45,304 bases of DNA from a virus (taxonomy: Duplodnaviria; Caudoviricetes), in IMG/VR virus record IMGVR_UViG_3300033145_000829, positions 1 through 45,304 of that record; one strand, written 5' to 3'. The notes under the pieces were generated by a model that made no database searches, was not told the origin of the DNA, and saw only the letters and a list, made by a program, of their open reading frames with translations. How positions within the stretch are numbered: position 1 is the stretch's first letter; every line of letters begins with the position of its first letter. Positions 11,286 to 28,236 of the stretch are shown here, piece after piece. The translations under genes and the position numbers were made by a program.

Positions 11286-11380
11286 GAAAAACTCGGAGGC
11301 CGGGTAGGGTGAGGAGAGAATGCTTATATGCGTATCATATCACATTTTTTATATTTTTCAATTTATTTTTAAAATATCGC

Positions 11381-11410
11381 TTGACACACTATACGTTATG
11401 GCGTATAGTG
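11381..11410 (+). promoter_or_regulatory. Sigma70 promoter overlapped by a palindromic operator
   Basis: TTGACA-17 bp-TATAGT with an AT-rich upstream region. Inverted repeat CACTATACG-N6-CGTATAGTG at 11387-11410. Confidence 0.8.
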
Positions 11411-11444
11411 AACTTGAGAGTGAGGAAATTAACCAACCACCCAC

Positions 11445-11468
11445 GCCCCGGTCACCCGGGGCAGAAAG
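11445..11468 (+). repeat. Intergenic hairpin repeat A, copy 1
   Basis: GCCCCGG-TCAC-CCGGGGC-AGAAAG; second copy at 12553. Confidence 0.75.
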
Positions 11469-11500
11469 AAAAAAATAACCGCAAACCGAGGAGAAGCAAA

Positions 11501-12052
11501 ATGAAAAAAGAAATCAGAGACGAAATAATCAAATTGATCGAACTCAACGAAATTACAGATCCCTGCGACGAAAGAATTGAACAATGTGTCGCAGATCATT
11601 TTCCGGCAGAATACGACGGCACTCAAGGTTACTATGATTTTCAGATGGAGATCGGCAAAATCGTGAAAGAGACCCAGACGCCGGAAAAACTCACCGATCA
11701 AATCATGGAAGAAATCGACCTCATCGAACTCCGGAAAACTCTCGCACTCTCAGGCAGTGGGAGCGTATGGATATACTACGACGGTTCATTCGAATTTCAC
11801 GAAAGCAATACGCGCCCAAGCGGAAAAGGCAGGGCGATAATCGCGACTATCAAAACCGCAGGCCGTGGGAATATCGATGAAGATTGGTATGCGGAAGGGT
11901 GGGCAAAATATGACGATGAAAAAGACGCGTGGATCACAGAAGATGGTAGAAAATTAAGTCCTGATGAAATGATAGCAGAATCAATAGAAGAAGGAGAATT
12001 CGATTGGTACGAAATGTATAACGCTATCAAAGATAGTATCGAATCCAAATAA
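11501..12052 (+). CDS. Acidic hypothetical early protein
   Basis: ATG 11501 with a GAGGAG RBS; Asp/Glu-rich; first gene after the promoter. Confidence 0.75.
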   Translation: MKKEIRDEIIKLIELNEITDPCDERIEQCVADHFPAEYDGTQGYYDFQMEIGKIVKETQTPEKLTDQIMEEIDLIELRKTLALSGSGSVWIYYDGSFEFHESNTRPSGKGRAIIATIKTAGRGNIDEDWYAEGWAKYDDEKDAWITEDGRKLSPDEMIAESIEEGEFDWYEMYNAIKDSIESK

Positions 12053-12062
12053 CCCAACCAAC

Positions 12063-12087
12063 CCTTCCCCCGGGGGGGGTCAAACCG
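12063..12087 (+). repeat. Intergenic repeat B, copy 1
   Basis: CCTTCCCCCGGGGGGGGTCAAACCG; related copy at 12955. Confidence 0.6.
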
Positions 12088-12107
12088 TAAGCTAAGAGGA
12101 GAAAAAA

Positions 12108-12539
12108 ATGATGAAAAACACAGAAGAGAGAAACGCAGAGTTAAATCGGCATCGAGACAATGATTGTACATGTGACAACTGTTTGCATTTCGTTGCCGGG
12201 ATATGCGAAAACAAGGCAGCCCAGTATTTTGGGCTGCCATGTGGCGACGAATGGGCATGCATCGATCATACTATCCGTCCCAGCCGTCCCAGCCTTAAGG
12301 CTGAGATGGACAGTGAAAACTTTTTTGAAATAGTCGAAAGAGAGCGGCGTTTAGTCGGTGCGCCGTGTAGTTCTTTTGAAGAGAGCGTTGAGTTCTTACG
12401 AGAACTCGATGCAAAGGGATTAGTTAAAACTGCTGGCCCGATTGGCGACGTTATCGCCAGAGCGTATTGGACTAACAGTGACGGTGACATAGGGGGTTGT
12501 GTCTCAATCCCCAAATATGATCTGGATTATCCTCTTTAA
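12108..12539 (+). CDS. Hypothetical early protein with Cys-rich N-terminus
   Basis: GAGGAG RBS; CTCDNCLHF..C..C..C. Confidence 0.7.
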   Translation: MMKNTEERNAELNRHRDNDCTCDNCLHFVAGICENKAAQYFGLPCGDEWACIDHTIRPSRPSLKAEMDSENFFEIVERERRLVGAPCSSFEESVEFLRELDAKGLVKTAGPIGDVIARAYWTNSDGDIGGCVSIPKYDLDYPL

Positions 12540-12552
12540 ATAACTCACCCGT

Positions 12553-12576
12553 GCCCCGGTTCGCCGGGGCAGAAAG
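12553..12576 (+). repeat. Intergenic hairpin repeat A, copy 2
   Basis: GCCCCGG-TTCG-CCGGGGC-AGAAAG. Confidence 0.75.
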
Positions 12577-12590
12577 GAAACACAAAAAAA

Positions 12591-12927
12591 ATGGCAATCT
12601 ATATTACAACAACATTCTCTCCAATGATGTTAGGAGAGAGGTCAGTAGCAACTGTCCGTCGAATTCTGGAAAAAGAATTCCGGCAGAGTTTAGAGGCTGA
12701 GTCCAATGGCATAATATCTGCCGTTGGACATGAGGCGACTGCCTCAATCATGTCCCAAAAAGTTCGCTTTTACGATTAAAGCGAATAGGGTAAATTTGGC
12801 CTTGAAATTCGGGGATGTAGTTCTTGCAGCCATCCCGAAATTTCGGGCTGATATTTCTCGAGAATTCACTAAAAAGGAGCTTGAGAACTCAAAGTTTGAG
12901 TTCTTCAAGATCCTGGTGATAAGGTAG
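12591..12927 (+). pseudogene. DUF1874 / AcrIII-1-like ring nuclease split by a +1 frameshift
   Basis: ORF 12591-12779 (FSPMML..SAVGHEATA) and ORF 12724-12927 (NRVNLALKFGD..R..EEL-like) join into one protein of about 111 aa if one A is removed from CAAAAAG near 12757-12761. Confidence 0.65.
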
Positions 12928-12954
12928 TCTCAGTTAGAACTTTAAAAATTTATT

Positions 12955-12978
12955 CCTTCCCGGTGGGAGGTCAAACCG
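12955..12978 (+). repeat. Intergenic repeat B, copy 2
   Basis: CCTTCCCGGTGGGAGGTCAAACCG, followed by an RBS. Confidence 0.6.
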
Positions 12979-12993
12979 GGGAAAGGAAAAATC

Positions 12994-13194
12994 ATGACAT
13001 TATACGTCATAACAGAAAGGCAAAATCTTCAAAGCCTCAGAACCGGCCAGGTCATCTGGACGAAGAACCTCACAGCCGCAAAACGGATGGCCACCGCAGG
13101 GCAGGCATTCCAAGGGACTGTGCTGACAATCGAAACCCCAGCAGGTCTTGAACTGGCTTTCAAGAAAAATGGCAAATGGACTGATGTTGATTAA
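12994..13194 (+). CDS. Hypothetical early protein
   Basis: 66 aa, AAGGA RBS, in the operon. Confidence 0.7.
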   Translation: MTLYVITERQNLQSLRTGQVIWTKNLTAAKRMATAGQAFQGTVLTIETPAGLELAFKKNGKWTDVD

Positions 13195-13209
13195 AAAGAA
13201 AGGGAAAAC

Positions 13210-13467
13210 ATGAAAAACTTAATAATTTTCTCAGGTGAAGGCGAACGCGGAACTTTCGAGATATACACCGGGAAACAAACGCCCAGGGCAATCCGAGCAA
13301 AAATCACACGTGAAGCATGCAGCGGAGATAGGTTTGTAGAATTGTTTCGGGCAGCTGGACCTGAGTACGCGGACAACTCATATTTTGAGATCGACCCGGA
13401 TACAATGGAGCCAACCGGGGAAATGCGGACCATCAGACCGGATCAGATTGAGGGCTTAAATGGTTAA
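13210..13467 (+). CDS. Hypothetical early protein
   Basis: 85 aa, AGGGA RBS, overlaps the next gene. Confidence 0.7.
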   Translation: MKNLIIFSGEGERGTFEIYTGKQTPRAIRAKITREACSGDRFVELFRAAGPEYADNSYFEIDPDTMEPTGEMRTIRPDQIEGLNG

Positions 13468-13660
13468 GATCGGAACGAAAATGGAAACGTCGGATGCAGC
13501 GCTCGAACTCGGGACATCAATCCGGATCGTCCAACGACTGGCAAAAGATGGCAGGCTCCCGGCCGTAAAACTCGGCCGGAACTGGATAATTGACGAAAAA
13601 GACCTTGACCTCGTCCGGGATCGAAAGCCCGGGCGGGCAGGATGGAGGAAAAAAAGATGA
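13460..13660 (+). CDS. Helix-turn-helix protein (HTH_17/excisionase-like), possible operon repressor
   Basis: TSDAALELGTSIRIVQRLAKDGRLPAVKLGRNWII. Confidence 0.8.
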   Translation: MVKIGTKMETSDAALELGTSIRIVQRLAKDGRLPAVKLGRNWIIDEKDLDLVRDRKPGRAGWRKKR

Positions 13661-13667
13661 AGCTATC

Positions 13668-13695
13668 ACCCCGGCCCTAAAGCCGGGGTTTTTTT
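13668..13695 (+). terminator. Rho-independent terminator
   Basis: ACCCCGGC-N6-GCCGGGGT followed by a T-run, between convergent genes. Confidence 0.8.
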
Positions 13696-13704
13696 CTATC
13701 TAAA

Positions 13705-13902
13705 TCATATTCTTCGAACGTTTTCGGCCCCAATATCACTCAACCATCCGGTCACAATTCCCCGTTCAGTTGCCAACATCACAACCCCCAAAGACTCCGA
13801 CCATTTTAATTTTGTTTTTTGCATTCTCGCGCCTTTTCGAAATTCTACCGTGTCGCCGTCGTTCAGCGGCATACCGTTTACGTCGTTTAGTTTTACGTCC
13901 AT
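13705..13902 (-). CDS. Hypothetical protein
   Basis: 65-aa ORF with an AAGGG RBS. Confidence 0.55.
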   Translation of the reverse strand: MDVKLNDVNGMPLNDGDTVEFRKGARMQKTKLKWSESLGVVMLATERGIVTGWLSDIGAENVRRI

Positions 13903-13987
13903 TGATTACCCTTCCCAGCCAAGACTCGCCCAGACTAAACGCTCTCCACCGAGAGAGGCTTAGCTATTTACCGCCCTTTAACAAAAT

Positions 13988-14272
13988 TTAAAACAAAAGC
14001 TCTGTAAGTTCATTGATTTGGTTATGGGCGTATTCAATTTTATCCATAATTTGATCCCTGCCGTGCGACAATACATCGCATAATGATGGGATTACCGGCT
14101 TGGCAGCTACTTCCGAAGCTTTTTCTTCGTTACTTTCCGGCATCGGATGGACTCTTCTGATTAATTCGTTCAAAAGTTCATTAATTCGGTCAATGCTATC
14201 TATTGCATTGTTCAGCTCGACATGTTTTTCTTGTCGCTCACAACCACCATTGCAACACACCGTTTCTTTCAT
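13988..14272 (-). CDS. Hypothetical protein
   Basis: 94-aa helical ORF in the minus-strand operon. Confidence 0.6.
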   Translation of the reverse strand: MKETVCCNGGCERQEKHVELNNAIDSIDRINELLNELIRRVHPMPESNEEKASEVAAKPVIPSLCDVLSHGRDQIMDKIEYAHNQINELTELLF

Positions 14273-14298
14273 AACTCTATTGTCTTTCGTTTTTCTGT

Positions 14299-14805
14299 TT
14301 ATTGGTTTTCAAGCGCTTTTACTACCCAATACACCTTATTTTTAAACTCATCAATCGTACCATTATTTTCAATAATCCAATCATACAAATAATCTTCAAC
14401 GCCCTGATCCGCCCGGTTGTTTGCCGGTTTTGACCGATCCGACCGGATTAAAACCGTTGTTGCCTGGCCAGGATATGCCTCAACAAACTTTTTAATCTCA
14501 GCAGGCTTCCGACACATCAGCGTAATCCATATATCCTCGACGACATTCGAAAACTTGTTTATTTGAAAGCAGATCGAATTGAACGACATACCGTTATACC
14601 GATTTGTCGCATCCTCAATATCAGATAAAAGTCTCCGCCCTTTTTCATCTTTCTGACTATCCCACCCGGCTACTCTCGCAATTGCCGGGATCTGAGTGCT
14701 CCAAATTTTCGAAAGCCACACGGTCGGATCGTGGTATTCAGCGATAAAATCCGCGAATGTGTTCTTGCCCGATTTATTGTGTCCGTTAATAATTATAAGT
14801 TTCAT
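14299..14805 (-). CDS. P-loop nucleotide (dNMP) kinase-like protein
   Basis: IIINGHNKSGKNTFA..GWDSQKDEKGRRLLSD..YDWIIENNGT. Confidence 0.7.
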   Translation of the reverse strand: MKLIIINGHNKSGKNTFADFIAEYHDPTVWLSKIWSTQIPAIARVAGWDSQKDEKGRRLLSDIEDATNRYNGMSFNSICFQINKFSNVVEDIWITLMCRKPAEIKKFVEAYPGQATTVLIRSDRSKPANNRADQGVEDYLYDWIIENNGTIDEFKNKVYWVVKALENQ

Positions 14806-15260
14806 GCGTACTCCTCCGCAGCCCAGCGCGAAATGTGAACAGCATCCGCCTCATTATCGTCAATCGGCTCCCGCCCCAAAAACGACTTCGCTGCTTCGAT
14901 CATAGCAAGTTTTCCAGCATTGCCTTTCCCGGTAGCGAACTTTTTTAGAGTCGCTGTGTGAACGGTCGCGCACGGGACTACATACTCTTCCGCAACTTCC
15001 TGTACCCGGCCCGTAAGATTTACGCCGATTTCAGTCGCCGCCCCGCCTCGATGATGGGCCTGTTCATACGCTATAAGCCCCGGGCCGTAGTCTAAAATCA
15101 TATCTCTAAGCCACTTCCTGAATCTTAGGAACATCATACCATTCGATTCACCGCGTTTTTTCGAAAAATCCATGACGCCTGATTCAATCACCTTCTGTTT
15201 TTTTGAATCGTAAAAGCTCCAACCTGTGCGGGTCCCAGTATCTATGCCAAAAATTAACAT
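14802..15260 (-). CDS. RuvC-like Holliday junction resolvase
   Basis: IFGIDTGTRTGW, AYEQ, LKKFATGKGNAGK, DDNEADA. Confidence 0.85.
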   Translation of the reverse strand: MLIFGIDTGTRTGWSFYDSKKQKVIESGVMDFSKKRGESNGMMFLRFRKWLRDMILDYGPGLIAYEQAHHRGGAATEIGVNLTGRVQEVAEEYVVPCATVHTATLKKFATGKGNAGKLAMIEAAKSFLGREPIDDNEADAVHISRWAAEEYA

Positions 15261-15302
15261 CTTTTTCCCCTATTCCATTGTGCCCGATTTTTCCCCAAGT
15301 TT

Positions 15303-15680
15303 TCAAGCCGATCCAGCCGAATCTGTATTTTTGCAAGCGCTTTTTCGATTGGTTTTAATTCGGATTTTAGTGCTTTTCTTACTGCTTTTTCCATTTTTTC
15401 CTCCTTCTTTATCTAATTTTTTAATTTCAACAATTTCAGCGGTAAATGCTGAAGGAAACACAATTTTCCAATTCCAACCATCGCGAAATTCTTTTGTCTG
15501 CGGGTAAATTTCACCGATAAACGCCCACAGCTTCCGGCTATCGTCGTAAAGTCTGCACAGCTCTTTCATACAATAAGCGGGAACTTTGAATCGTCGATAT
15601 TCTTGTTCCAGGTTCAATGTTTTTCCGCAAAATTTATAATTCATTACTTCCTCTTTTTTTAAATTCTTCAGCAACGCCAT
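15303..15680 (-). CDS. Hypothetical protein
   Basis: ORF in the operon. The true start may be the internal Met after GAGG. Confidence 0.55.
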   Translation of the reverse strand: MALLKNLKKEEVMNYKFCGKTLNLEQEYRRFKVPAYCMKELCRLYDDSRKLWAFIGEIYPQTKEFRDGWNWKIVFPSAFTAEIVEIKKLDKEGGKNGKSSKKSTKIRIKTNRKSACKNTDSAGSA

Positions 15681-15694
15681 ATTTTTTTAAAATC

Positions 15695-16006
15695 TCAATC
15701 CTTTTTCCAATACCCTTCAGGACATTCCTCCAGATCAAATACTAATTTCTCAGCCCTGCCGCACCACAAACAATTCGGCATCTCATCAGCCTCTCGATAT
15801 TCTACATGACCGCAAACAAATCCAAGGCATCGTGGTATTTCCCGGCTCAAAGTTTCGATAATTTCCGACTTATACGCTTTCGCATATTCGAGAAGTTTCT
15901 CTCTTTGTTCCGGACAAATCCGGCCCATACCGTGTATCCGGGCCACATCGTTCTGCAAATAGACGTACAGGCCGCGTAAAAACAGATAATTTACTGGATT
16001 TTTCAT
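15695..16006 (-). CDS. Hypothetical Cys-containing protein
   Basis: 103 aa with a GGAGG RBS. Its first codons are duplicated at the primase stop. Confidence 0.65.
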   Translation of the reverse strand: MKNPVNYLFLRGLYVYLQNDVARIHGMGRICPEQREKLLEYAKAYKSEIIETLSREIPRCLGFVCGHVEYREADEMPNCLWCGRAEKLVFDLEECPEGYWKKD

Positions 16007-16013
16007 ATCTCTA
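15990..16013. repeat. 24-bp direct repeat, left boundary of the cassette block
   Basis: TTTACTGGATTTTTCATATCTCTA, identical to 18192-18215. Confidence 0.9.
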
Positions 16014-16033
16014 TATCCTCCGACTCGCCTATT

Positions 16034-16099
16034 AAAAAACGACGGTTTCAGTTTGTTGGCCTGCTGCTTTTGGCGTCAGAGTCAAGCGACTGGTTAGAT
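16034..16099 (-). other. Degenerate attC-like site (5' half intact)
   Basis: Minus strand ATCTAAC-CAGTCGCTTGACTCTGACGCCAAAAGC...; the 3' arm has lost complementarity. Confidence 0.45.
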
Positions 16100-16296
16100 G
16101 CAATCGCTTCCCACTCCGAAAAATCAACTGAACTGATTTTCGTCAACTTTAAGGTTTTATCATTGCTGAATAAAACCTCTTCGCCAGTTAGCGATAAACA
16201 CCTCACTGTTTTGCTGCCGTGATGAACGACTATCAATACCTTGTGAGGATTTCGCCCTCCCGCCCATTCATTTATAACAATATCTCCAAATTTCAT
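16048..16296 (-). CDS. Cassette gene, hypothetical protein
   Basis: Starts just after GTTAGAG and reads into the attC-like half site (SNQSLDSDAK). Confidence 0.65.
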   Translation of the reverse strand: MKFGDIVINEWAGGRNPHKVLIVVHHGSKTVRCLSLTGEEVLFSNDKTLKLTKISSVDFSEWEAIASNQSLDSDAKSSRPTN

Positions 16297-16303
16297 TTTC
16301 ACC

Positions 16304-16367
16304 CTCTAACGATTAAGCTCAGCCGCCCGCCGCTTTTCTCAGCGGTCGGCTGGAGCAACTGTTTATA
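16304..16367 (-). other. attC-like recombination site
   Basis: Minus strand TATAAAC-AGTTGCTCCAGCCGACCGCTGAGAAAAGCGGCGGGCGGCTGAGCTTAATC-GTTAGAG; a 64-bp imperfect palindrome. Confidence 0.8.
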
Positions 16368-16589
16368 TGCGGGTGGGGTATCTTCGCAACCCTTAGTTCA
16401 CCTAACAACCACCGATTGTTCGATGTTAGGGTCACCCCCATAAATGCTTCGTCACCTAAGCTTGCTTGCCGCATTACCCTCCTGGCACTCAACCATATTG
16501 GTTGGGAGGCTGCTCTCACGTGGCATCCGGAATTTATTGCTCGCACAAGGCTCCCCTAAGATCGGATGGCAACTCCGATCCCCGCATAT
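16365..16589 (-). ncRNA. Putative structured RNA (non-coding cassette)
   Basis: Closing stem ATATGCGGG/CCCGCATAT, several internal stems, no convincing ORF. The strand is assumed from the array direction. Confidence 0.5.
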
Positions 16590-16599
16590 TTTAAAGAGC

Positions 16600-16660
16600 A
16601 TATAACGCCTAAGCTCACAAGCCGCGCTATTCAGCGGTCGTGTGCGGTGGCGGGTTATAC
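16600..16660 (-). other. attC-like recombination site
   Basis: Minus strand GTATAAC-CCGCCACCGCACACGACCGCTGAATAGCGCGGCTTGTGAGCTTAGGC-GTTATAT. The Rha stop codon lies within TAAC. Confidence 0.85.
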
Positions 16661-17371
16661 TGTAATAAGCATTTGTTCGCTCAACACTTTTGATTGTCCA
16701 TGCAACTCGGCGAAAATTTCGACCTTCTTTTTAGCATTTTTATAAATTTCTTTATAAAAAACATTATTCTTCATATCTCCCCGTAACGATTTACCGATTA
16801 TCTGTTCGGCCGCTCCAATAGTCATAAGCTGTTCCGGGGACAAAACATCTCGAAGACTTTTGAATTTCCCTTCGCAAATAAAAAGCAGTGTGTTCATCAT
16901 GCGAGTAAAATTAGAATAATATTTGTCACAACCTTCGGGTGTTCCGCCCTGTTCTTTAGCATAGGTTATAAATTCTTGGATTGCACCGGTTTCAAGAAGC
17001 CTTATTGTTTTACTGGTGAGTCTCGCTTGATTCCATACTGGAGCATGCTTTTGATTAATTGCTTTCGCTAATTGAATCCTGCATCTTTTAAATTCTTTGA
17101 CAAGGCGTAGTTTGAATTTTACAACCTGAGCATCGTTCTTGAAAAGTGTTCCAAGGAACATAAATTGATCTTCGTCAAGCAAATATTCCCTAAACGATTT
17201 GGTTTTGCCCTTCGTAATATCACCTTTCAAAGGTGATATCTCTTCAAATTCTTTTTTATATTTAAGGATTAATCTTTTAACTTGATCATGCCCTCTATTA
17301 AATCCTTGTGCGATTAAAAGTGTTCCCGCCCTGCCTTCATTTCCGTGAATAACCACAATTTGTTTTCCCAT
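16655..17371 (-). CDS. Rha-family phage regulatory protein (cassette gene)
   Basis: IAQGFNRGHDQVKRLI..YLLDEDQFMFLGTLFKND..VKFKLRLVKEF is a Rha-type N-terminal domain. Confidence 0.8.
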   Translation of the reverse strand: MGKQIVVIHGNEGRAGTLLIAQGFNRGHDQVKRLILKYKKEFEEISPLKGDITKGKTKSFREYLLDEDQFMFLGTLFKNDAQVVKFKLRLVKEFKRCRIQLAKAINQKHAPVWNQARLTSKTIRLLETGAIQEFITYAKEQGGTPEGCDKYYSNFTRMMNTLLFICEGKFKSLRDVLSPEQLMTIGAAEQIIGKSLRGDMKNNVFYKEIYKNAKKKVEIFAELHGQSKVLSEQMLITV

Positions 17372-17407
17372 GGATATGCCCCTCTTGTTAAATTATTAAT
17401 ATTTAGC

Positions 17408-17436
17408 GTAATAAGGCATATTAATATATCTGTCAA
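17408..17436 (-). promoter_or_regulatory. Cassette-internal sigma70-like promoter
   Basis: Minus strand TTGACA-17 bp-TATTAC; the spacer contains the palindrome ATATTAATAT. Confidence 0.5.
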
Positions 17437-17455
17437 GGTTTAATTTTGTGATGTT

Positions 17456-17515
17456 GCATAACGATTAAGTTCAACCGGCACGGCTTTTTGTGTCCGCTGC
17501 ATTTTTTTGTTATAA
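17456..17515 (-). other. attC-like recombination site
   Basis: Minus strand TTATAAC-AAAAAAATGCAGCGGACACAAAAAGCCGTGCCGGTTGAACTTAATC-GTTATGC; 60 bp. Confidence 0.85.
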
Positions 17516-17517
17516 GG

Positions 17518-17736
17518 TTAAACTTCCCAAACAACAGTACCCCCAAGCTTAGTTATTCTACCTTTTCTAAAATTAGGTTTGAATAAATTAAAACGTTCTT
17601 TTAGTGCTTCAATATCTTCTGAAATGGACTCTTGCTGCCATTGCATTGTATATGTAACTGCTTGTGCTCTGCGTACGTATGTAACTTCTTGCCTCGCCGG
17701 TGCCAATTGCCCTAACTCTAATAAATATGTTGACAT
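17518..17736 (-). CDS. Cassette gene, 72-aa hypothetical protein (MSTYLLELG...)
   Basis: ATG 17736 with a GAGGA RBS right after the GTT core; the stop lies 2 bp before the attC-like site. Confidence 0.7.
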   Translation of the reverse strand: MSTYLLELGQLAPARQEVTYVRRAQAVTYTMQWQQESISEDIEALKERFNLFKPNFRKGRITKLGGTVVWEV

Positions 17737-17751
17737 GCTTATCCTCATAAC
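17668..17751 (-). repeat. 84-bp repeat, inverted copy at 28141-28224
   Basis: 82/84 identity by manual alignment. Confidence 0.9.
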
Positions 17752-17805
17752 GTTTGAAATCACAGGCCGCGCTGTTCAGCGGTCATGTGCGGTGGCGGGT
17801 TATGT
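17745..17805 (-). other. attC-like recombination site
   Basis: Minus strand ACATAAC-CCGCCACCGCACATGACCGCTGAACAGCGCGGCCTGTGATTTCAAAC-GTTATGA. It is a close paralogue of 16600-16660, and the upstream stop lies in TAAC. Confidence 0.85.
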
Positions 17806-18165
17806 GTGAAACAGTCTCTCTATTGCTGATCTATTAGCCATTCGTGTAATATCTTTGCAACAAATTCTATCAGCTTCGTACACGTCCATAGCCATATTAT
17901 AATAACCGTTGCCGAGGACATCGTTAACCATTAATCTAAAGTGTTTTCTCAAATTTTCATATTGTAATAATCTGACCCTATTTTCCTCATAAAAGCTTTT
18001 GTAAAAATCATATTCGCAGGCGGTCATCCAGATAGCAAAGTCTCTTAATGCATCTATTTCGTCTGCCGCTGCAATTAATTTTTTCGATATGTCTTTTGCA
18101 ACAGGCTCTTCAACAGCTATAAAAATAGCTTGCCCAGCTTTACGCAATTCCATTGTATTTATCAT
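17800..18165 (-). CDS. Cassette gene, hypothetical protein
   Basis: 121 aa with a GAGGAG RBS; its stop lies in the attC-like inverse core. Confidence 0.7.
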   Translation of the reverse strand: MINTMELRKAGQAIFIAVEEPVAKDISKKLIAAADEIDALRDFAIWMTACEYDFYKSFYEENRVRLLQYENLRKHFRLMVNDVLGNGYYNMAMDVYEADRICCKDITRMANRSAIERLFHT

Positions 18166-18191
18166 TATTACTCCTCTCGTATAAAAAACGG

Positions 18192-18215
18192 TTTACTGGA
18201 TTTTTCATATCTCTA
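18192..18215. repeat. 24-bp direct repeat, right boundary of the cassette block
   Basis: Identical to 15990-16013 and overlaps the primase stop codon. Confidence 0.9.
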
Positions 18216-19152
18216 CATCATTTTGAATAGCTGGGCCTGATTCACGATTTAATTGATCTAAAAAATCCCCATTCTCATCAGGAAAACAAACTTCAACGTC
18301 AATCTTATTTTGCACCGTCAATCTATTCGCTAATATATATGCTGATTTTTGCCCTGTATACGATAAATCTTTATCTCCAAAAATAAATACGCATTTTATT
18401 CCTTTAGGCGGCTCAAAACCTTCTAATATCGTATTAGATACAGCGCTCCACGTCGGTATGCCTTTCAATTCATAACACGCCATAGCAGTTTCTATACCCT
18501 CAGCTATCCCGATTACCCCATCTATCGGCTCATATAGCCTTATTGCGCCGCCAACCATGCTCTGGAGCGCTGGTAAAACCTTTTTAGGATTTTTTATACT
18601 GGCCTTATCGCCATTTTGCGTTAGGAAAGTTCTGTGCATCGTAATAGCTGTCCCGTCAGGCAATGCGAAGGTGGCGAGCATAGCAGGCATTTTATAATGC
18701 GTTTCGGGTTCATAGCATACCGGATGATATCTTAATTTGTCAGATGTTAATTTAAGGCCACGGTTTTTAAGATAACAAAATACCGGGTCTCCAGCGTAAA
18801 CCGGTTTTGATCCGATATAAATTTTTCTAAGTAGCTCTTTTGATATTTTTGGTTCCGGTTGTGTTTTTGTCATATCACATGCCCCGATAACGTCTCTGAT
18901 CGCTTTAACTGCTTCTTTGAAATCTATACTTAGAACCTTCATAACCAACGAGAATCCATCTCCTGCCCCGCAATTGTTACATATCCACGAGCCTGAACCA
19001 TCTTTGTCATCCATCCTGAACCTATCACAACCGCTTTCTCCTGGCTGGCATATCGGGCATGCGGTATGGCATCCAGATTGCCCAACTTCTATCCCTAACG
19101 CAGAAAAAATCCCGGGCCAGCGTCCAGTTGTCTCCTCTTTTATGTCTATCAT
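18205..19152 (-). CDS. DNA primase (Zn ribbon + Toprim)
   Basis: HTACPIC..DRFR..WICNNCGAGDG; IAEGIETA; FGDKD. Confidence 0.9.
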   Translation of the reverse strand: MIDIKEETTGRWPGIFSALGIEVGQSGCHTACPICQPGESGCDRFRMDDKDGSGSWICNNCGAGDGFSLVMKVLSIDFKEAVKAIRDVIGACDMTKTQPEPKISKELLRKIYIGSKPVYAGDPVFCYLKNRGLKLTSDKLRYHPVCYEPETHYKMPAMLATFALPDGTAITMHRTFLTQNGDKASIKNPKKVLPALQSMVGGAIRLYEPIDGVIGIAEGIETAMACYELKGIPTWSAVSNTILEGFEPPKGIKCVFIFGDKDLSYTGQKSAYILANRLTVQNKIDVEVCFPDENGDFLDQLNRESGPAIQNDVEI

Positions 19153-20675
19153 ACGCTCACTCCTTTAGATTTCTGATATGCTTTAGCCTTCTTAATTAAC
19201 ATATGGGTTAATAAATTCTTTACCTCCCCCTCTGGCTTTATTGGCCCAACGTTTTTGACTCTCGGATCGTTATTCCAAACCCCCATATAGTCTTTGTAAG
19301 CATGCGACACCCACCCTGGTTTATACCCCTTACTTTGCGCGTGCCATTCAAGGGCTCCGACAAATCTTCTCTTGTCTGCCCATGACATATCTAGATTCGT
19401 TTTCTTCTTCGCTTTTAACTCAACCAATTCAGCGTCAACGGTTTCAATCAATTTTCCAAAACTTTTCAAAGGCGTACCACATCGTGGGCATGTGAATCTC
19501 CCTGAAAATATCTCCTTACACACACTGCATTGAGATAATTTTTTTTCTTTACCATCCCGTTTTTGTTTTTTAAACGCCTTTTCTTTTCCGTCGAGAGTCC
19601 ATTCTATTTCTTCGTCGAGCGTTCCAAGTTCCTCTACGACATTCGCGTGGTCAATAAAAATTAGGTTCTCTTTTCCTTCTTCAACCCTCAGCCCGCGACC
19701 GCCTGCTTGCCTATATAATCCAAGGCTTTTGGTCGGTCTTGCAAATACTATACAAGAAATAGAAGGTACGTCCAAGCCTTCGACATACAATAAAACATTT
19801 ATCAAAACCTGAATATCACCGCGTTCCATTGCGTGAAATACATCATCCCGCTCTTCGTCTGAACTTTTTGCGTCAAGCCTAGCTGTTTTTACCCCTGCTG
19901 ATTGAAAAGCCTCGCATAATGATATTGAATGCTTCACGTTTATGGTATAGACTAAGGTTTTTCGATTCTCTGCAAGTTTCAGCCAATTTTCTACAATATC
20001 GCCTATGAGCTTTTTCTTGTTTATCTTTTTCTCAAGAGACCCCGCCTGATAATCACCTCCAAGCTCCTTCACGCCGTTAAGATCAATCTTGCCAGGAACG
20101 AAGTATCTGACAGGCGAAAGATACCCGAGTTCTGTCAATTCTCTGACTTCGGGCCCAACAACAAGGCTATCAAATACCATCCCCATGCCGCATCCATTTG
20201 CTTTTATTGGAGTGGCTGTGAATCCTATTATTATTTTATCTTCGTATAGATCTATAACGTCTTGATACGTCTTACTTACGGCGCGGTGGCCTTCATCGAT
20301 CAAAATTAAATCAGCTGCTACAACGAATTTATTATATTCCGGTTTTTCTAACTTAACCCTTCTTGAAAATGTTTGAATTGATGCAAGCTGAACCGAATTA
20401 TCAAGATCAAGCTCATGGCCGCTCATAATTATACCGGGCGTTATTCCATAATGTTTTTCCAGCATGTCGTTTATCTGGGTTACAAGATTCCGCCTATGTA
20501 CAAGAAAAAGAACGCGAGTTCCTTTGTTTACAGCTCTTTTTATTATCTCGCACATTGTGGGGCTTTTCCCGCTTCCGGTCGGCATGGCAACAATCGGACG
20601 CTTATTGCCGTTTATGAGCTCATCTCTTACTTTTTTAATAACATCAAGCTGATATGTCCTTAATTTAATTAACAT
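19149..20675 (-). CDS. Superfamily 2 DNA helicase
   Basis: LRTYQ, PTGSGKS, DEGH, TATP, EGLDVP, QAGGRGLR, and a C-terminal Zn ribbon. Confidence 0.92.
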   Translation of the reverse strand: MLIKLRTYQLDVIKKVRDELINGNKRPIVAMPTGSGKSPTMCEIIKRAVNKGTRVLFLVHRRNLVTQINDMLEKHYGITPGIIMSGHELDLDNSVQLASIQTFSRRVKLEKPEYNKFVVAADLILIDEGHRAVSKTYQDVIDLYEDKIIIGFTATPIKANGCGMGMVFDSLVVGPEVRELTELGYLSPVRYFVPGKIDLNGVKELGGDYQAGSLEKKINKKKLIGDIVENWLKLAENRKTLVYTINVKHSISLCEAFQSAGVKTARLDAKSSDEERDDVFHAMERGDIQVLINVLLYVEGLDVPSISCIVFARPTKSLGLYRQAGGRGLRVEEGKENLIFIDHANVVEELGTLDEEIEWTLDGKEKAFKKQKRDGKEKKLSQCSVCKEIFSGRFTCPRCGTPLKSFGKLIETVDAELVELKAKKKTNLDMSWADKRRFVGALEWHAQSKGYKPGWVSHAYKDYMGVWNNDPRVKNVGPIKPEGEVKNLLTHMLIKKAKAYQKSKGVSV

Positions 20676-20850
20676 AAACCTCCCGATAGAACATACATAG
20701 TAAAATATTTTCTTTACTTACATCCCCGTAAACGCTTGGTACGACGGGTTTTATAATAAAAAGTAGTTAATAAAAGTTGCCAAATATGGTTACTAACATT
20801 TTGCTACATGCTGCTTAAATGTTTGTTAAACCCCTTACCAGAGATAAATA

Positions 20851-21363
20851 TCAGGGTTTGCTAAATTTCCAGCTTTCTAAAAATCCCCTAATATCTAGTA
20901 TGCTGTTATAATCAAATTCTTTTCTTTGGTTAGGGTTTTTTCGCTTAAAAACATTGGCATTGACATTAACCCTACCACTAACGGGTTCGCTTGGGTTTTC
21001 TGGGTTCGCTTGGGTTTTCTGGGTTCGCTTGGGTTTTCTGGGTTCGCTTGGGTTTTCTGGGTTACGAAAAAACCCACTGGGTTTTCTGGGTTATTTTTGG
21101 GTTTAATCATTATTTGTTTTTGGCCTCCCGCCTTTCTTGCCGTTTTCTTTGTTTCTTGCTGCTATCTGTTTCCATTTTTCAGCGTCCCTATCAAGCGTAA
21201 CTCTAAAAAACTTAAATGCCATATTAACGACTGGGTCTAAATTGCTTATTTTGCCACATCTACTATATATAAATATAGCGTTTAAAAGGTTCCCTTTTTG
21301 CTCAACGGTCAAGTCTTCTATCGCATCAAACTGGTCATGGTAAAGGATAAAGCTCTTTTTCAC
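20851..21363 (-). pseudogene. Fragmented DUF6291-type replication initiator gene
   Basis: The N-terminus KKSFILY..NGKKGGRPK stops at 21103. The middle part (KPKNNPENPVGF) and the tail (PVSGRVNVNANV) are not connected to it in frame. Confidence 0.55.
20983..21063. repeat. Four tandem 19-bp repeats (putative origin iterons)
   Basis: GGGTTCGCTTGGGTTTTCT x4 plus a partial copy, with an adjacent palindrome AAAACCCA-C-TGGGTTTT and an AT-rich region. Confidence 0.85.
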
Positions 21364-21553
21364 CTTTTATACCCCCTGCCTTCAGCTCTTTAATTAACGA
21401 CCGTGTTGTGCTATAGCAAAGCCCTGTCCCGATTGAGCATTCCATTGCGTTAGCATCAGGGTTTCTTGATATCCAAGCAATGATTTTTTTTAAATTTTCA
21501 GCCCTAATAGCCTTCATGTGTTGGCCTCGTCCGTCTTTTACTTTATGATACAT
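21335..21553 (-). CDS. Small winged-helix/HTH-like protein
   Basis: ATG 21553 with an AGAGG RBS; NPDANAMECSIGTGLCYSTTRSLIKEL. Confidence 0.6.
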   Translation of the reverse strand: MYHKVKDGRGQHMKAIRAENLKKIIAWISRNPDANAMECSIGTGLCYSTTRSLIKELKAGGIKGEKELYPLP

Positions 21554-21590
21554 TTTAACCTCTTTCTCTATATTGTTAACTTTCTCTATA

Positions 21591-21619
21591 GCTATACCAA
21601 ACAAAAAAATATATGTCAA
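21591..21619 (-). promoter_or_regulatory. Sigma70 promoter for replication genes
   Basis: Minus strand TTGACA-17 bp-TATAGC. Confidence 0.7.
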
Positions 21620-21622
21620 ACT

Positions 21623-21656
21623 AAAAAAAGGCGCAATGTTTAATTGCGCCTTTTTA
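21623..21656. terminator. Bidirectional-type intrinsic terminator
   Basis: A-run, GGCGCAAT-loop-ATTGCGCC, T-run. Confidence 0.75.
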
Positions 21657-21685
21657 ATATTTATTTTTCAGATCAGATTATTTTT

Positions 21686-22321
21686 TTATGCCCATCCTCC
21701 ATAAGCAGCCTGAACCTCACTCATAAAATCCGCGCCAAGCCTAGACATAGATTTTTCACCATCGCCAGCAGCCCGGCTCCGGAGCAGACACGTTTCACAT
21801 CTCTTATCTGTTCGTGTCTCACATGGGCAGAAATCGCAGTGCCGCTTATATCCGCCAGCTTTATACCCTGCTACGTTAAAGCCCGCAGGGATAACCAGCT
21901 TCTTTGATTTAATTGAAGCAGGTGGTTGCGCTGGATGATTAATCCCTGCCCTGTGCATAGCGCTAGCAACTGTCTGCGTTTTACATTCACATAGCTTCCC
22001 GATTTCAGCGCTAGTCATTCCTTGTTTGCCTAGTGCCGATAACATTTCTTTATGAGTTAAATAATTACTCCCCATTTTTTTATTTACTAGACGTGTTCTA
22101 CGAGGCCAATTACTCATCCTACTTGCACGCTTACGCCCACGCCCACAGCCACAATCTCGCGCCTCCCCCCTTCTAAGCTGGTTTCCGCTTACAATGCGTG
22201 TCCCGCCGCATTCACATGCGCAAAACCACTTAGCTTCACCGCTTGTGCTGCTTTCAGCGCGACGAATAACCGTCAATTTAGTGAAAGTTTTTCCGGTCAT
22301 GTCTTTCAGTCTTGCAGCCAT
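21686..22321 (-). CDS. Protein with homing-endonuclease-associated N-terminal Cys domain
   Basis: DMTGKTFTKLTVI..WFCACECG..LRRG..CGC, then an HTH-like segment and Cys pairs. No HNH motif is recognised. Confidence 0.6.
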   Translation of the reverse strand: MAARLKDMTGKTFTKLTVIRRAESSTSGEAKWFCACECGGTRIVSGNQLRRGEARDCGCGRGRKRASRMSNWPRRTRLVNKKMGSNYLTHKEMLSALGKQGMTSAEIGKLCECKTQTVASAMHRAGINHPAQPPASIKSKKLVIPAGFNVAGYKAGGYKRHCDFCPCETRTDKRCETCLLRSRAAGDGEKSMSRLGADFMSEVQAAYGGWA

Positions 22322-22475
22322 TTTCTTCCCCTTTCACTGGTAAAGTTCTACTGAACGCAAACTCCATTTCTTTCCTTAAAATATCTACATCTATAAAAGA
22401 TAAGTGGATTTTATTTAACGATGAAACTTTGCAATACGCAGACCACCAGTCGTTAAATGATTTGAATTTTTCCAT
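22278..22475 (-). CDS. Hypothetical protein
   Basis: 65 aa with an AGGAG RBS. Confidence 0.55.
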   Translation of the reverse strand: MEKFKSFNDWWSAYCKVSSLNKIHLSFIDVDILRKEMEFAFSRTLPVKGEENGCKTERHDRKNFH

Positions 22476-22488
22476 TTTTTTCTCCTGC

Positions 22489-22683
22489 TCATTTTAATAA
22501 ATCCTTTCCATCAACCCCAAGCACTTCAGATATTTTGCTGAGCGTTTTAAAAGTTGTAGTTTTCCTCATAAAAATAAAGTCGAGCGCCTGGCGCGTAATA
22601 TTCACCGCGCCCGCAAACTCAGCATTATTTTTATACCCTGCCATTTTTATTTCTCGTCGTAGTTTAGTAATATTTATTTCCAT
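22489..22683 (-). CDS. Cro-like HTH regulator
   Basis: AEFAGAVNITRQAL..TLSKISEVLGVDGKDLL; first gene of the leftward arm. Confidence 0.75.
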   Translation of the reverse strand: MEINITKLRREIKMAGYKNNAEFAGAVNITRQALDFIFMRKTTTFKTLSKISEVLGVDGKDLLK

Positions 22684-22787
22684 GCTCTAACTATAAATTA
22701 ACCAAATTATTTTTGCAATCATTAATTTACGAAGTCTATCCTTATATATATATAAATTCAACATGCAAATTTATTTTGAAATAGCGC

Positions 22788-22816
22788 TTGACATCTTTTC
22801 TGGTATCCAGTAACAT
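22788..22816 (+). promoter_or_regulatory. Sigma70 promoter of the rightward recombination arm
   Basis: TTGACA-17 bp-TAACAT. Confidence 0.7.
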
Positions 22817-23086
22817 CAAGCATAAGTCGGGCATACCCCGCCGGAGACGGAAACGTTGAAACCGGGGTCACTCGACGCCAAGCTCAACCGTTTGCAGCGC
22901 CCCTGATCGGGTAGCGGCGGGAGGGCAGAGGAAAGAAAATAAAAGATTGATTTTTTTAAACCCATATAAAAAAAGGAGAAGCCTATGGATAGCAACTAAA
23001 ATATAGTGCGAAGCCGCACAGGAACATATGGCAACAAAGACAAAGAATAGTGTAGTACACTTAAAAAAAAAGCAACGGAGGCGCCA

Positions 23087-23293
23087 ATGGATCGACAATT
23101 ATTAGCTAATAAAACTCTTAAACGCCGATCTGTTGGCGTGTCCTGCGCTACATTTGCGACTGGCATTGCGTGGGTGGTCGGGTTACTCCTAGCCGGATCG
23201 GATGGCGAGTGGATGCCTTGGGGAAATATTGCAGGGGTTATAATTTTTATGATCAGTTCATGGAGGATGACGCATCATGAAATTTGGAAATGA
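23087..23293 (+). CDS. Small membrane protein
   Basis: GGAGG RBS and two hydrophobic segments. Confidence 0.6.
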   Translation: MDRQLLANKTLKRRSVGVSCATFATGIAWVVGLLLAGSDGEWMPWGNIAGVIIFMISSWRMTHHEIWK

Positions 23294-23564
23294 AGTAACG
23301 GTGAGCGCTGTATTTAAGCGACGCACAAAAGGCCAAAACATGCCCGATACTGTTTATAAATATTGGGAAAAAGTGAGAATTAAGACAAGAAGTGGCTTAT
23401 TTCTCGGCATCCGTACAATCTCTAACGGGGCTAGGGATTACGACCCAGACTACGGATGTGTGTACAGAGCTAAAGAATATATTAAGGCAGCGCTAGTTGT
23501 GTTTTCGGAACGTGAAAAACCTGTATATGCTCCTATGGAAAACGTTGAGGAGATAAAGGCATGA
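23277..23564 (+). CDS. Hypothetical protein
   Basis: 95 aa with a GGAGG RBS, translationally coupled. Confidence 0.7.
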   Translation: MKFGNEVTVSAVFKRRTKGQNMPDTVYKYWEKVRIKTRSGLFLGIRTISNGARDYDPDYGCVYRAKEYIKAALVVFSEREKPVYAPMENVEEIKA

Positions 23565-23812
23565 AAAAACTATCGGAAGATGCAAAAATTTTAATCACCG
23601 AGGCTATTCTATGTGAAGTATATAGACGCATGGCAGATACTCCGATCCGAGTGTTTTATGGCGATATCGAAATTGATGCGTATCGCGAGGATAGCAAAGA
23701 AGGGGTTTTTTTGACTATCGATGAAAAAGATTTTTCTGAAAAAATGCGGGCCGAGGATGCTGTTAATCAGGCGTTTGCTGATGAAAAAGATTATTATGAG
23801 GGGAGAAGATGA
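23561..23812 (+). CDS. Hypothetical protein
   Basis: 83 aa with ATGA overlaps on both sides. Confidence 0.7.
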   Translation: MKKLSEDAKILITEAILCEVYRRMADTPIRVFYGDIEIDAYREDSKEGVFLTIDEKDFSEKMRAEDAVNQAFADEKDYYEGRR

Positions 23813-25716
23813 ATATAAAAATTAAAGAAATTACGCTTAAAAATTTCAAAGGTGTTAAGCGTTTAAACATAGATTTTAACGGTGGAAATCTATCTATTTT
23901 CGGCGATAACGGAACCGGAAAAACAACTGTTCAGGACGGCTTCACATGGTGTTTGTTCGGAAAAGACAGCGCAAATTCAGCAACATTCGATATTAAACCG
24001 ATTCAAGAAAACGGCGAGGCAACCCATAATCTTGATTGCTCTGTTGAGCTAATCCTCTCCGCTGGCGATATCGATCTAATTTTAAAGCGAGTCTATGCTG
24101 AAAAATACACTCGGCGTCGAGGCCAGGCATCGGCTGAATTTACCGGGCACACGACCTCATATTTTGTCAACGATGTGCCAGTCAACGAAAAAGAATATAA
24201 GGCTAAAATTTCTGGCATCATTCAAGAAGATACGTTCCGCCTCCTCACGAATCCGAAATATTTTAATGGGCTTCATTGGCAGGAAAAAAGAAAGCTTCTT
24301 CTGGAAATCTGCGGTGATATTCCAGACGAAGATGTGATCAAATCCGATCATCGGCTTACCACGCTTCCCGAAGTGCTGGCTGGCCGGACCCTTGATGACT
24401 ACCGAAAAATTGTCACCGCTCAAAAAACAAAAATAAATGGCGAGTTAAAAAACATTCCGGTCCGGATAGATGAAGCCAAGAAAAGCCGGGTTGAAATCAC
24501 TGCCACGGAAACCGCTACCGCTTCAGAGGCTGCAAATTTGCAGGAAAAAAAACGAAAAAAAGAACAGGAACTCTCCGATATCGTTAACGGCGGTGATATC
24601 AGTAAGAAACGGGTTGAGCTTCAGGAGGTCGTTGCAAAAATTCAGAAAGCTGATAATGATTTTGAAAAAGATCGAACGGTACGAATAAAGGATAAAAGCA
24701 TTGAACTCGATAAATTAAATCAGACAAAAGAGACGCTCGAAAAGACATTGCGAGAATACGCGAATGATATTTCATCTTACACGCTGACTATTTTAGGCTC
24801 TAGACTCAATATAAAACAGCTAAAAGATGAATGGTTTGCCACAAGAGACAATATTTTTAAATCTGATGGTGTCTGCCCTACCTGTGGTCAGGAACTCCCT
24901 GAAGACCAAATAGAGGCAGCTAAAGCCGCATTTAATAAAAATAAATCAGACAATCTTGAGGCAATCAACACCGAAGGCAAGCAGGCCAAAGCCGATATCG
25001 AATTGATCCAAAAAAATATTACAGAAATCGAAAAAAAACAGAAGGCAGAAAATGGAAAACTGGAGGCCGTCAAAAAAGATATAGCCGATGTTCAAAAAGA
25101 TATCGCCGATATCCAGGCGGAAGGATTGATTCAAGCCGAATTGGGTATGAAAAAGACCGAGCTAGAAAAAGCCATTGTCGATACTGAAACAAAGACCGAC
25201 ACTGAGCCGCTCAAAGCCACTATTCGTGATCTTGAAACTCAAATACAAGCCCAGCAACTTATTTTAAGTCAGATCGAAGCAAATAAAAAAACCGAATTTC
25301 GCATTACCGAGCTGACTGGGCAAGAAAAAAAGCGGGCCTCAGAATTTGAGCAAATCGAAGGGAACCTTTTCCTAATAGAATGCTTTATAAAAGCCAAGGT
25401 TAGACTCCTTGAAGAAAAAATAAACGGTAAATTCCGGCAGGCAAGCTTCAAACTGTTTTCTGACCAGATTAATGGGGGCCTAAATGAGTGCTGCATTACG
25501 ACACTAAACGGCGTCCCGTATGATTCTGTCAATTCAGCTGGAAAAATTCAGGCGGGCCTTGATCAGATAAAAACATTTCAAGATCATTATGGATATAGAG
25601 CACCGATTTTTATTGATAACGCTGAGTCTGTGGTGAAGCTGCCGGAAATGGATTGCCAAATTATCCGTCTGGTTGTTTCTGAAAAAGATAAAACTTTGAG
25701 ATTTGAGGAGAAATAA
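23809..25716 (+). CDS. SMC/Rad50-like AAA ATPase
   Basis: LKNFKG, GDNGTGKTT, coiled coil with a CPTCGQ zinc hook, PIFIDNAES. Confidence 0.9.
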   Translation: MNIKIKEITLKNFKGVKRLNIDFNGGNLSIFGDNGTGKTTVQDGFTWCLFGKDSANSATFDIKPIQENGEATHNLDCSVELILSAGDIDLILKRVYAEKYTRRRGQASAEFTGHTTSYFVNDVPVNEKEYKAKISGIIQEDTFRLLTNPKYFNGLHWQEKRKLLLEICGDIPDEDVIKSDHRLTTLPEVLAGRTLDDYRKIVTAQKTKINGELKNIPVRIDEAKKSRVEITATETATASEAANLQEKKRKKEQELSDIVNGGDISKKRVELQEVVAKIQKADNDFEKDRTVRIKDKSIELDKLNQTKETLEKTLREYANDISSYTLTILGSRLNIKQLKDEWFATRDNIFKSDGVCPTCGQELPEDQIEAAKAAFNKNKSDNLEAINTEGKQAKADIELIQKNITEIEKKQKAENGKLEAVKKDIADVQKDIADIQAEGLIQAELGMKKTELEKAIVDTETKTDTEPLKATIRDLETQIQAQQLILSQIEANKKTEFRITELTGQEKKRASEFEQIEGNLFLIECFIKAKVRLLEEKINGKFRQASFKLFSDQINGGLNECCITTLNGVPYDSVNSAGKIQAGLDQIKTFQDHYGYRAPIFIDNAESVVKLPEMDCQIIRLVVSEKDKTLRFEEK

Positions 25717-25717
25717 C

Positions 25718-26482
25718 ATGGAAAACAAACAGCTTACGCCGGTTGACCGCCTGAAAAATATTATATCCGCTGAATCGGTTCAAGATCAGTTTAAAAATGC
25801 TCTTGCAGGCAATAAAGACCTTTTTACCGCGTCATTGGTAGATATTTATGCATCAGATACTTACTTACAAAAATGCGATCCCAAAAGCGTAGTGATGGAG
25901 GCCTTGAAAGCCGCGACTTTGAAACTTCCGATTAATAAGAATCTGGGTTTTGCTTACATTGTGCCATATAAAGGCAAGGCGCAAATGCAAATTGGGTACA
26001 AAGGATATTTGCAGCTGGCGCAGAGAACAGGGCAGTACCGGTTTATCAACGCGGACATCGTTTTTGAAGGGGAAACTGTTGTAGTTGATAAGCTCCGAGG
26101 GAATGTTTCAATTGAAGGCGTAGCAACGAGCGACACATCAATTGGGTATTTCGCTTACATTGAAACTCTGAATGGTTTCCAGAAAGCTGTCTACTGGACG
26201 AAAGAAAGAATATTGGCTCACGCAAAACGGTACAGCGAAAGCTATCGACGGAAAAAGGGGGCCTGGGTAACAAATTTGGATGAGATGGGAATTAAGACGG
26301 TATTAATCAACCTACTGTCGCATTACGGCATCATGTCTGTTGAGATGATATCTGCCATGACAGCGGATAGCGCCGAAACTCCGGAGCAGGAGGCCGCCGA
26401 ACATGCAAACCAAAATATCATCGACATACAGCCAGAACCTACAGAAGAAGAATCGAAAACAGCGCAAGGGCCGGACTTTTAA
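25718..26482 (+). CDS. recT: RecT family recombinase
   Basis: LGFAYIVPYKGKAQMQIGYKGYLQLAQRTGQY; ATG 25718 with a GAGGAG RBS. Confidence 0.9.
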   Translation: MENKQLTPVDRLKNIISAESVQDQFKNALAGNKDLFTASLVDIYASDTYLQKCDPKSVVMEALKAATLKLPINKNLGFAYIVPYKGKAQMQIGYKGYLQLAQRTGQYRFINADIVFEGETVVVDKLRGNVSIEGVATSDTSIGYFAYIETLNGFQKAVYWTKERILAHAKRYSESYRRKKGAWVTNLDEMGIKTVLINLLSHYGIMSVEMISAMTADSAETPEQEAAEHANQNIIDIQPEPTEEESKTAQGPDF

Positions 26483-26483
26483 T

Positions 26484-28131: not shown

Positions 28132-28140
28132 TAATCAATG

Positions 28141-28236
28141 GTTATAAGGATAAGCATGTCAACATATTTATTAGAGTTAGGGCAATTGGCACCGGCGAGG
28201 CAAGAAGTTACATACGCACGCAGAACAGCTTTATGA
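28141..28236 (+). pseudogene. Truncated second copy of the MSTYLLELG cassette (26-aa ORF 28156-28236)
   Basis: 84-bp match to 17751-17668, starting at GTT. Confidence 0.75.

Follow-up and report, generated by a model that had tools for sequence, protein, structure and literature searches.

How could integron-type gene cassettes come to lie in the replication operon of a phage in which no integrase is found, and what adds or removes them? The question is raised by a linear virus record of 45,304 bp (Caudoviricetes; IMGVR_UViG_3300033145_000829), estimated to be 74% complete and referred to here, over its whole length, as the window. On its minus strand, between a primase gene and a gene of 103 amino acids that we call gene X (15695-16006), a row of attC recombination sites alternates with small genes over 2.2 kb. 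We find that this row is a genuine cassette array and that the phage holds a second cassette site at position 28141, at the end of its early operon. With a probability of roughly two in three (0.68), an integron integrase (IntI) of the host inserted the cassettes, while deletion independent of IntI erodes them.

The array is a row of integron attC sites

Re-examination of the sequence confirmed the positions and the common orientation of all five hairpins that an initial annotation, made from the letters alone, had placed in the array. We named them D, C, B, A, and E in gene order:

17745-17805, minus strand: attC site D, canonical; 86% identical to site B; 30.2 bits
17456-17515, minus strand: attC site C; attCs of this type are frequent in the class of genome G006; 23.5 bits
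16600-16660, minus strand: attC site B, canonical; 26.5 bits
16304-16368, minus strand: attC site A, with a damaged R'' and a right arm found unchanged in bacterial attCs; 19.3 bits
16034-16099, minus strand: broken attC site E, left half normal, R' box absent at the expected distance

The scores come from a covariance model (R1) trained on 21 bacterial attCs, none from the window: 10 from an array linked to an integron integrase gene (intI) in genome G006, a deltaproteobacterium (Olavius Delta 3 symbiont), and 11 from other loci. These were chosen by a custom geometry scan, and the structure was set by hand. Sites D, B, C, and A were the top 4 of 11 matches in the 45 kb, the next match reaching 13.3 bits, and site E gave no match in the same search. 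The box anatomy agrees with this ranking. In D, C, and B, the layout is R''(7)-5-L''(8)...L'(7)-6-R'(7), and R'' ends in AAC and R' starts with GTT, with complementary flanks. On the bottom strand, R and L boxes pair at 6 and 6 of 7 positions in D, at 5 and 5 in C, and at 6 and 7 in B, and the L boxes of A pair at all 7. An extrahelical base is present in each of these four sites, namely a C in D, C, and B (the first extrahelical base) and a G in A; the C bulge recurs in the array next to intI in G006. The R'' of site A, read in its correct register, ends in AAA instead of AAC, and site E has no GTT at the right distance, so that its R' is missing. Three sites (D, C, and B) are therefore canonical, and A and E are damaged.

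Further evidence came from sequence matches to bacteria. A 21-mer of site A occurs at six bacterial genome loci, five of them in full attCs and the sixth in a damaged attC inside an array, and many genomes in the class of G006 have attCs that match site C at 80-97% identity over 30-80 bp. Exact-pattern scans for the B/D type matched the related phage G001 alone among viral contigs and nothing among genome contigs; in metagenomes they returned 99 loci, 97 of them with a geometry score too low for an attC, and at none does the sequence go on as in B or D. The right-arm pattern of A and C matched, among viral contigs, G001 and six chance positions in coding DNA.

That the hairpins are terminators or other regulatory stems resembling attCs by chance appears very improbable. 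In its favor, C and E fold no better than shuffled sequence: the free folding energy z-scores are -3.2 for A, -1.75 for B, -1.5 for D, +0.5 for C, and -0.1 for E, significant for A only. A geometry scan also gave C a chance-level score of 12.8 and missed A and E, while it scored B at 16.2 and D at 15.7, where 0.05 matches of at least 15 are expected per shuffled window (20 shuffles). Against it stand the model scores, the box geometry, and the near-identity to bacterial attCs, and no terminator was called at any of the sites. Rfam returned nothing at gathering level in the window and two chance matches in the array. Four co-oriented attCs, where two suffice by the threshold of Qi 2023, lie within 1.5 kb; no integron integrase is found nearby, with 16 kb or more of flanking sequence on either side. 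The hairpins are attC sites, and the array is a genuine integron-type cassette row, a cluster of attC sites without intI (CALIN) rather than a complete integron, as the initial annotation had proposed for this replication operon. IntI is predicted to recombine the sites as folded bottom strands.

Units 2 to 5 are built as cassettes

The array holds the following units:

17800..18165, minus strand: unit 1 open reading frame (ORF), 121 amino acids; stop inside R'' of site D; no matching opener
17518..17736, minus strand: unit 2 ORF, 72 amino acids; cassette 17751-17516
16655..17371, minus strand: unit 3 ORF, 238 amino acids, Rha-family phage regulator; stop inside R'' of site B
17408..17436, minus strand: promoter-like stretch in unit 3; perfect -35 hexamer, 17-nt spacer, weak -10
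16369..16606, minus strand: unit 4, a 238-bp cassette without a convincing gene
16048..16296, minus strand: unit 5 ORF, 82 amino acids, reading through into site E

Genes and attC top strands both lie on the minus strand, which is the orientation of ordinary integron cassettes. The TAA stop codons fall inside R'' for units 1 and 3 and 2 bp before R'' for unit 2, as reported initially. The reported complementarity between the box that opens a unit and the box that closes it depends on how site A is read: with A in the register set by its L boxes, units 2-5 agree at 13/16 variable positions, the best of 24 permutations, while in the register first proposed they agree at 9/16, and 6/24 permutations do as well. 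As we chose the shifted register after looking at the sequence, this result depends on that choice. A second copy of unit 2 elsewhere in the genome (see below) provides a case independent of the array copy, with an opener complementary at 4/4 positions. Unit 1 does not follow the pattern, its supposed opener matching at 2/4 positions only. Units 2-5 have the structure of cassettes and lie in the usual orientation.

The cargo is of phage type. The protein of unit 1 combines two small families of phage genes (~70 amino acids each) in one fusion, unit 3 matches phrog_2657 (5e-34) and PF09669 (2.7e-13), and unit 5 has one relative at 78% identity; no relatives were found for unit 2. A search of the ESM Atlas with units 1 and 5 gave no match at 0.9, and BLAST of the array against phages and plasmids returned one phage gene and no plasmid. 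Unit 4 has no convincing gene; its G+C content is 51%, as compared to 35-41% in the other units. It gave no Rfam match and no homolog, no consensus promoter was called in it, and its folding (z -1.8 to -2.1) was equaled by 3/40 control windows. For want of such a signal, we rejected a noncoding RNA, retron, or riboswitch in unit 4; no reverse transcriptase was present among the 57 window ORFs scanned. A role of the cargo in defense was also considered, for which PADLOC, run on seven proteins, offered a single weak match of Rha to PDC-S22 (2e-6). The Rha cassette seems to carry its own promoter, to judge from the hexamers listed above, which were recognized by eye and not called by the scanner; consensus promoter scans as a whole gave counts at chance level.

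A second cassette site has exchanged its cassette

The clearest sign of site-specific insertion lies outside the array, 10 kb away on the plus strand, at a place that the initial annotation had passed over:

28132..28143, plus strand: second cassette site, an attI-like core with a 4-nt L box, a 5-nt spacer, and G|TT with its G at 28141; end of the RecT early operon
28141..28227, plus strand: a shortened duplicate of cassette 2 whose first base is the G; no attC left

The two copies of cassette 2 are identical at 84/87 bases counted from the G and at 6/30 to its left, and the second copy is truncated ahead of a hairpin. The box that opens it is fully complementary to the R'' of site C, the site that closes unit 2 in the array. 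Cassette 2 is thus found twice in the genome, each time from G|TT and each time behind a different left flank, attC site D in one case and the attI-like core in the other.

Comparison with G001, a 34.6-kb record that has a ~15 kb early and replication module in common with the window at 94-99.9% identity, revealed an exchange at the same position. The shared module spans window positions 11362-28145, and the head and tail genes of the two phages are unrelated. Window and G001 are identical up to the G at 28141 and unrelated after it. The G001 allele (L015:1-380) consists of an 87-codon ORF that extends across a full attC (23.9 bits); a further unit begins behind it, and there the contig ends. 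Two phages holding different cassettes that begin at one and the same G demonstrate a swap at 28141.

The left flank resembles a bacterial attI core. The nine bases before the G ranked first among the 1531 GTT trinucleotides of the window under all three training variants of an attI-core matrix, which was built from 4-5 cores: three sites validated at 4/4 (two of them identical) and one at 3/4, drawn from 30 integron loci, plus one from a paper. The training sites were chosen by complementarity to their own first attC and not by likeness. The flank might instead be a decayed attC, as it contains a 6-bp hairpin; at 2.7 bits, we disfavor this reading.

A relative has lost two units by another route

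G001 also differs from the window within the array, where units 2 and 3 (1,145 bp) are absent. The joint lies away from G|TT, at a microhomology of 3 bases directly before R'', and site B is kept whole. Because of this off-target joint and the intact site B, we conclude that IntI did not make the loss. G001 likely represents the derived state, because B matches the opener of Rha, and a collapse during assembly is unlikely, because the longest stretch identical between D and B measures 18 bp. Annealing or slippage between sites D and B, which are 86% identical, would account for the deletion, possibly through the RecT-like annealing protein encoded in the early operon (25703..26482, plus strand), a candidate agent of homology-driven deletions. 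Gene 1 of G001 is now fused to the attC of the Rha cassette.

The expectation that related phages would differ at G|TT was borne out in part: the cassettes at 28141 and the two unit 2 copies show such crossovers, and the loss in G001 does not. The initial annotation had further suggested that the phage uses a host IntI to acquire and shuffle modules. Host IntI remains the likeliest inserter, with its best evidence at 28141 and outside the array, whereas shuffling of the array by IntI was not supported, since the sole internal change observed has a joint unrelated to GTT, an outcome that the initial annotation had itself named as speaking against its proposal, and two of the five sites are damaged. 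Other differences between window and G001 include several gene-sized insertions, deletions, or swaps (23289-23548, 12539-12953), of which the one at 23289-23548 is a gene-sized indel without an attC.

The integrase probably belongs to the host

As stated initially, no tyrosine recombinase was found in the window, neither among the 57 ORFs scanned nor as a PF00589 match in the six frames of this incomplete contig. Likewise, five related virus records, one of them complete, gave no PF00589 match. It is quite unlikely that the lineage has, or once had, its own intI and that we see a dispersed or decayed phage integron that borrows nothing from the host. This account gains from the window being linear and 74% complete and from G001 ending inside its second array, both of which leave room for a phage-encoded intI, and complete integrons do exist in temperate phages according to the accessible sections of Qi 2023 (PMC9892861). 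Yet no intI adjoins the array or the attI-like core, the latter being the usual place in integrons, and the ORFs upstream of the core are phage ORFs; moreover, a complete 75-kb phage (G408) that carries attC-bounded relatives of unit 1 shows no tyrosine recombinase or PF00589 match.

A host-encoded IntI is compatible with the likely host, a deltaproteobacterium of the class of G006, which we take to be Desulfobacteria in GTDB. Site C has matches in 14/101 genomes of this class as compared to 2/151 genomes of the class of genome G005, and IntI exceeds the family cut-off in 104/201 genomes of the class of G006.

Relatives of the cargo occur with and without attC in other viruses

The phage-type cargo named in the initial annotation, exemplified there by Rha, was confirmed more broadly. 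The C-terminal family of unit 1 occurs at 24 viral loci and in 0/301 genomes of the class of G006 (a search made with no positive control). Among 15 of these loci scanned, attC matches were found at L207 only, which lies in G408 and where the unit 1 relative is bounded by reversed attCs; a cultured Vibrio phage has a gene of this family without an attC. Three relatives of Rha (42-46%) have no adjoining attC, and two of their viruses carry reversed attC units elsewhere. For the cassette gene of G001, nine relatives lack an attC, and a tenth match proved to be an attC itself, in forward orientation between small genes of G407. The cargo is thus of phage type and occurs without attC in other phages.

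Several of these viral records hold arrays of their own. In G408, a reversed attC array of small genes lies behind a promoter-like stretch (G408:C1 about 70000-71200; L207:2880-4100). In G407, forward attCs of the site-C type lie between small genes (L200:280-690), and one has a long insert between its arms with an ORF reading through. G429, a 25-kb viral record, contains two reversed arrays (G429:C1 3600-5500 and 8200-9500; L225, L230) with six or more attCs plus decayed ones, carrying phage-type genes of 60-100 amino acids. Overall, the attCs are forward in the window, G001, and G407 and reversed in G408, G429, and G431. A whole-record search with the model gave 3/34, which is a lower bound, as its loose first pass missed known sites in G407 and one in G408.

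A direct repeat brackets the array

The extent initially given to the array stops at a repeat that brackets it and that has to be considered with it. The neighboring features are:

18192..18219, minus strand: upstream copy of a 28-bp direct repeat; covers the end of the primase gene and a nonfunctional duplicate of the gene X start
15990..16017, minus strand: downstream copy of the repeat, holding the real start of gene X
18205-19152, minus strand: primase, upstream of the array
19149-20675, minus strand: helicase, upstream of the array

The two copies are 96% identical and enclose the whole 2.2 kb; a short motif that ends in a run of T is common to both ends of the array as well. Recombination across the repeat would remove the entire array and couple primase to gene X. 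Searches with primase and gene X found G001 as the sole close relative and no empty-site allele.

This repeat is left unexplained by insertion through host IntI, and it is what would be seen if a circle had integrated by homology. It thereby favors capture of the array as a single block, taken by ordinary recombination out of another phage or out of an integron of the host, with the array inert and its attCs as passengers. The damage to A and E, the non-IntI joint of the observed loss, and the attC-less indel at 23289-23548 point the same way, and the accessible text of Qi 2023 (PMC9892861) favored off-target homologous or illegitimate recombination for the capture of phage cassettes. We nevertheless consider block capture unlikely as a general account: it leaves the second site unexplained, where two different cassettes start from one G behind an attI-like core, and an origin of the block in the host is disfavored by the phage-type cargo. 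It may still hold for the arrival of the main array in the primase operon.

Beyond the array, the window encodes terminase, portal, major head, holin, and endolysin proteins together with the RecT early operon and the helicase-primase operon. The terminase large subunit (7629-10193, 854 amino acids) contains a LAGLIDADG domain, likely an intein, and a polyvalent protein of 3,365 amino acids (33341-43438) has ADP-ribosyltransferase (ART-PolyVal) and RadC/JAB domains. At 20983-21063, a short tandem repeat in the replication region, possibly the origin, differs by 38 bp in copy number from G001. The 13.3-bit match at 22413-22458, a palindrome near helix-turn-helix genes that is matched weakly on both strands, is more likely an operator than an attC.

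Discussion

Taken together, we favor a genuine array and second site into which host IntI likely inserted cassettes that IntI-independent deletion likely erodes. During infection of an integron-bearing host, IntI would recombine the folded bottom strand of an attC with another attC or with an attI-like site. The early and replication transcripts of the phage may stand in for the integron promoter Pc; the primase/helicase transcript would run through the array. Homology-driven deletions and the decay of sites such as A and E would then fix useful genes and erase their attCs. The cargo would represent an exchangeable pool of small phage genes rather than a piece of a bacterial array.

A number of observations weigh against this reading. 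The joint of the G001 loss takes 8/8 informative bases from B, where excision by IntI predicts D. At the second site of G001 the opener is GGT instead of GTT, which calls for either a single later mutation or an event at a secondary site. The matrix of attI cores is very small, and we had seen the resemblance before the matrix was built; the head of the array, by contrast with the second site, does not resemble an attI (rank 133-295 of 1531), and unit 1 lacks an opener. Sites B and D had no attC match in 401 genomes of the class of G006, with one weak match that is not an attC, and the host comparison covers two bacterial classes only. To these we add the room for a phage-encoded intI discussed above.

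Phage CALINs are already in print, contrary to the initial view that such clusters are described mainly from bacterial replicons: Qi 2023 (PMC9892861) reports, in its accessible sections, 17 CALINs in 10,705 phage genomes and recombination by IntI1 for 5/6 phage sites. These CALINs resemble the present array in having at least two co-oriented attCs (up to four per CALIN), small ORFs, and no intI. They differ in that the cargo named there consists of methyltransferases, as compared to the small phage-type genes here, and the same sections report no comparison of related phages, no cassette swap, and no attI-like site in a phage wholly without intI; the M16-3 prophage has an attI before its CALIN and also a full integron. 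The SALINs and attG sites described in the available part of bioRxiv 10.1101/2022.09.11.507474 share IntI insertion outside the platform, crossover at GWT, and the use of resident promoters, whereas the present site is attI-like in its core and received a different cassette in each of the two phages. With the sedentary integrons of deltaproteobacteria (the G006 array; PMC8352920, as far as its accessible text goes), the locus has attC geometry, the sequence family of site C, and the layout of its attI-like core in common; it differs in having no intI and no recognizable Pc and in its cargo of phage-type genes for 60-240 amino acids. Unit 4, without a convincing ORF, recalls the gene-less promoter cassettes covered in the available portions of bioRxiv 10.1101/2023.11.21.568050 and PMC6557892, although no consensus promoter was called in it. 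The accessible portions of PMC13323075, PMC5737381, PMC11023631, and PMC12901181 held nothing further on phage arrays. A literature search with most subscription journals outside its coverage returned Qi 2023 as the only primary study, and we found no published comparison of phages that shows cassettes with phage-type genes being exchanged at an attI-like site.

A wider proposal, which we put forward tentatively and as rather doubtful, is that sediment deltaproteobacteria harbor phages with an attI landing site of their own, placed at the end of an early operon, that these phages swap phage-only cassettes via the host integrase, and that they make new cassettes by short-homology joining of ordinary phage genes to attCs. 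Such cassette genesis is implied by the occurrence of one gene family without attC, with forward attC, and with reversed attC, as well as by the fusion of gene 1 to an attC in G001. If true, phages would be a workshop for cassette genesis. Phage CALINs have been known but regarded as rare captures; here, two near-identical early modules show both kinds of joint, one from a deletion that is not of the IntI type and the other from a swap of the IntI type at an attI-like site. Two questions thereby become testable, namely whether phages use host integrases to vary their accessory genes and how genes first gain an attC.

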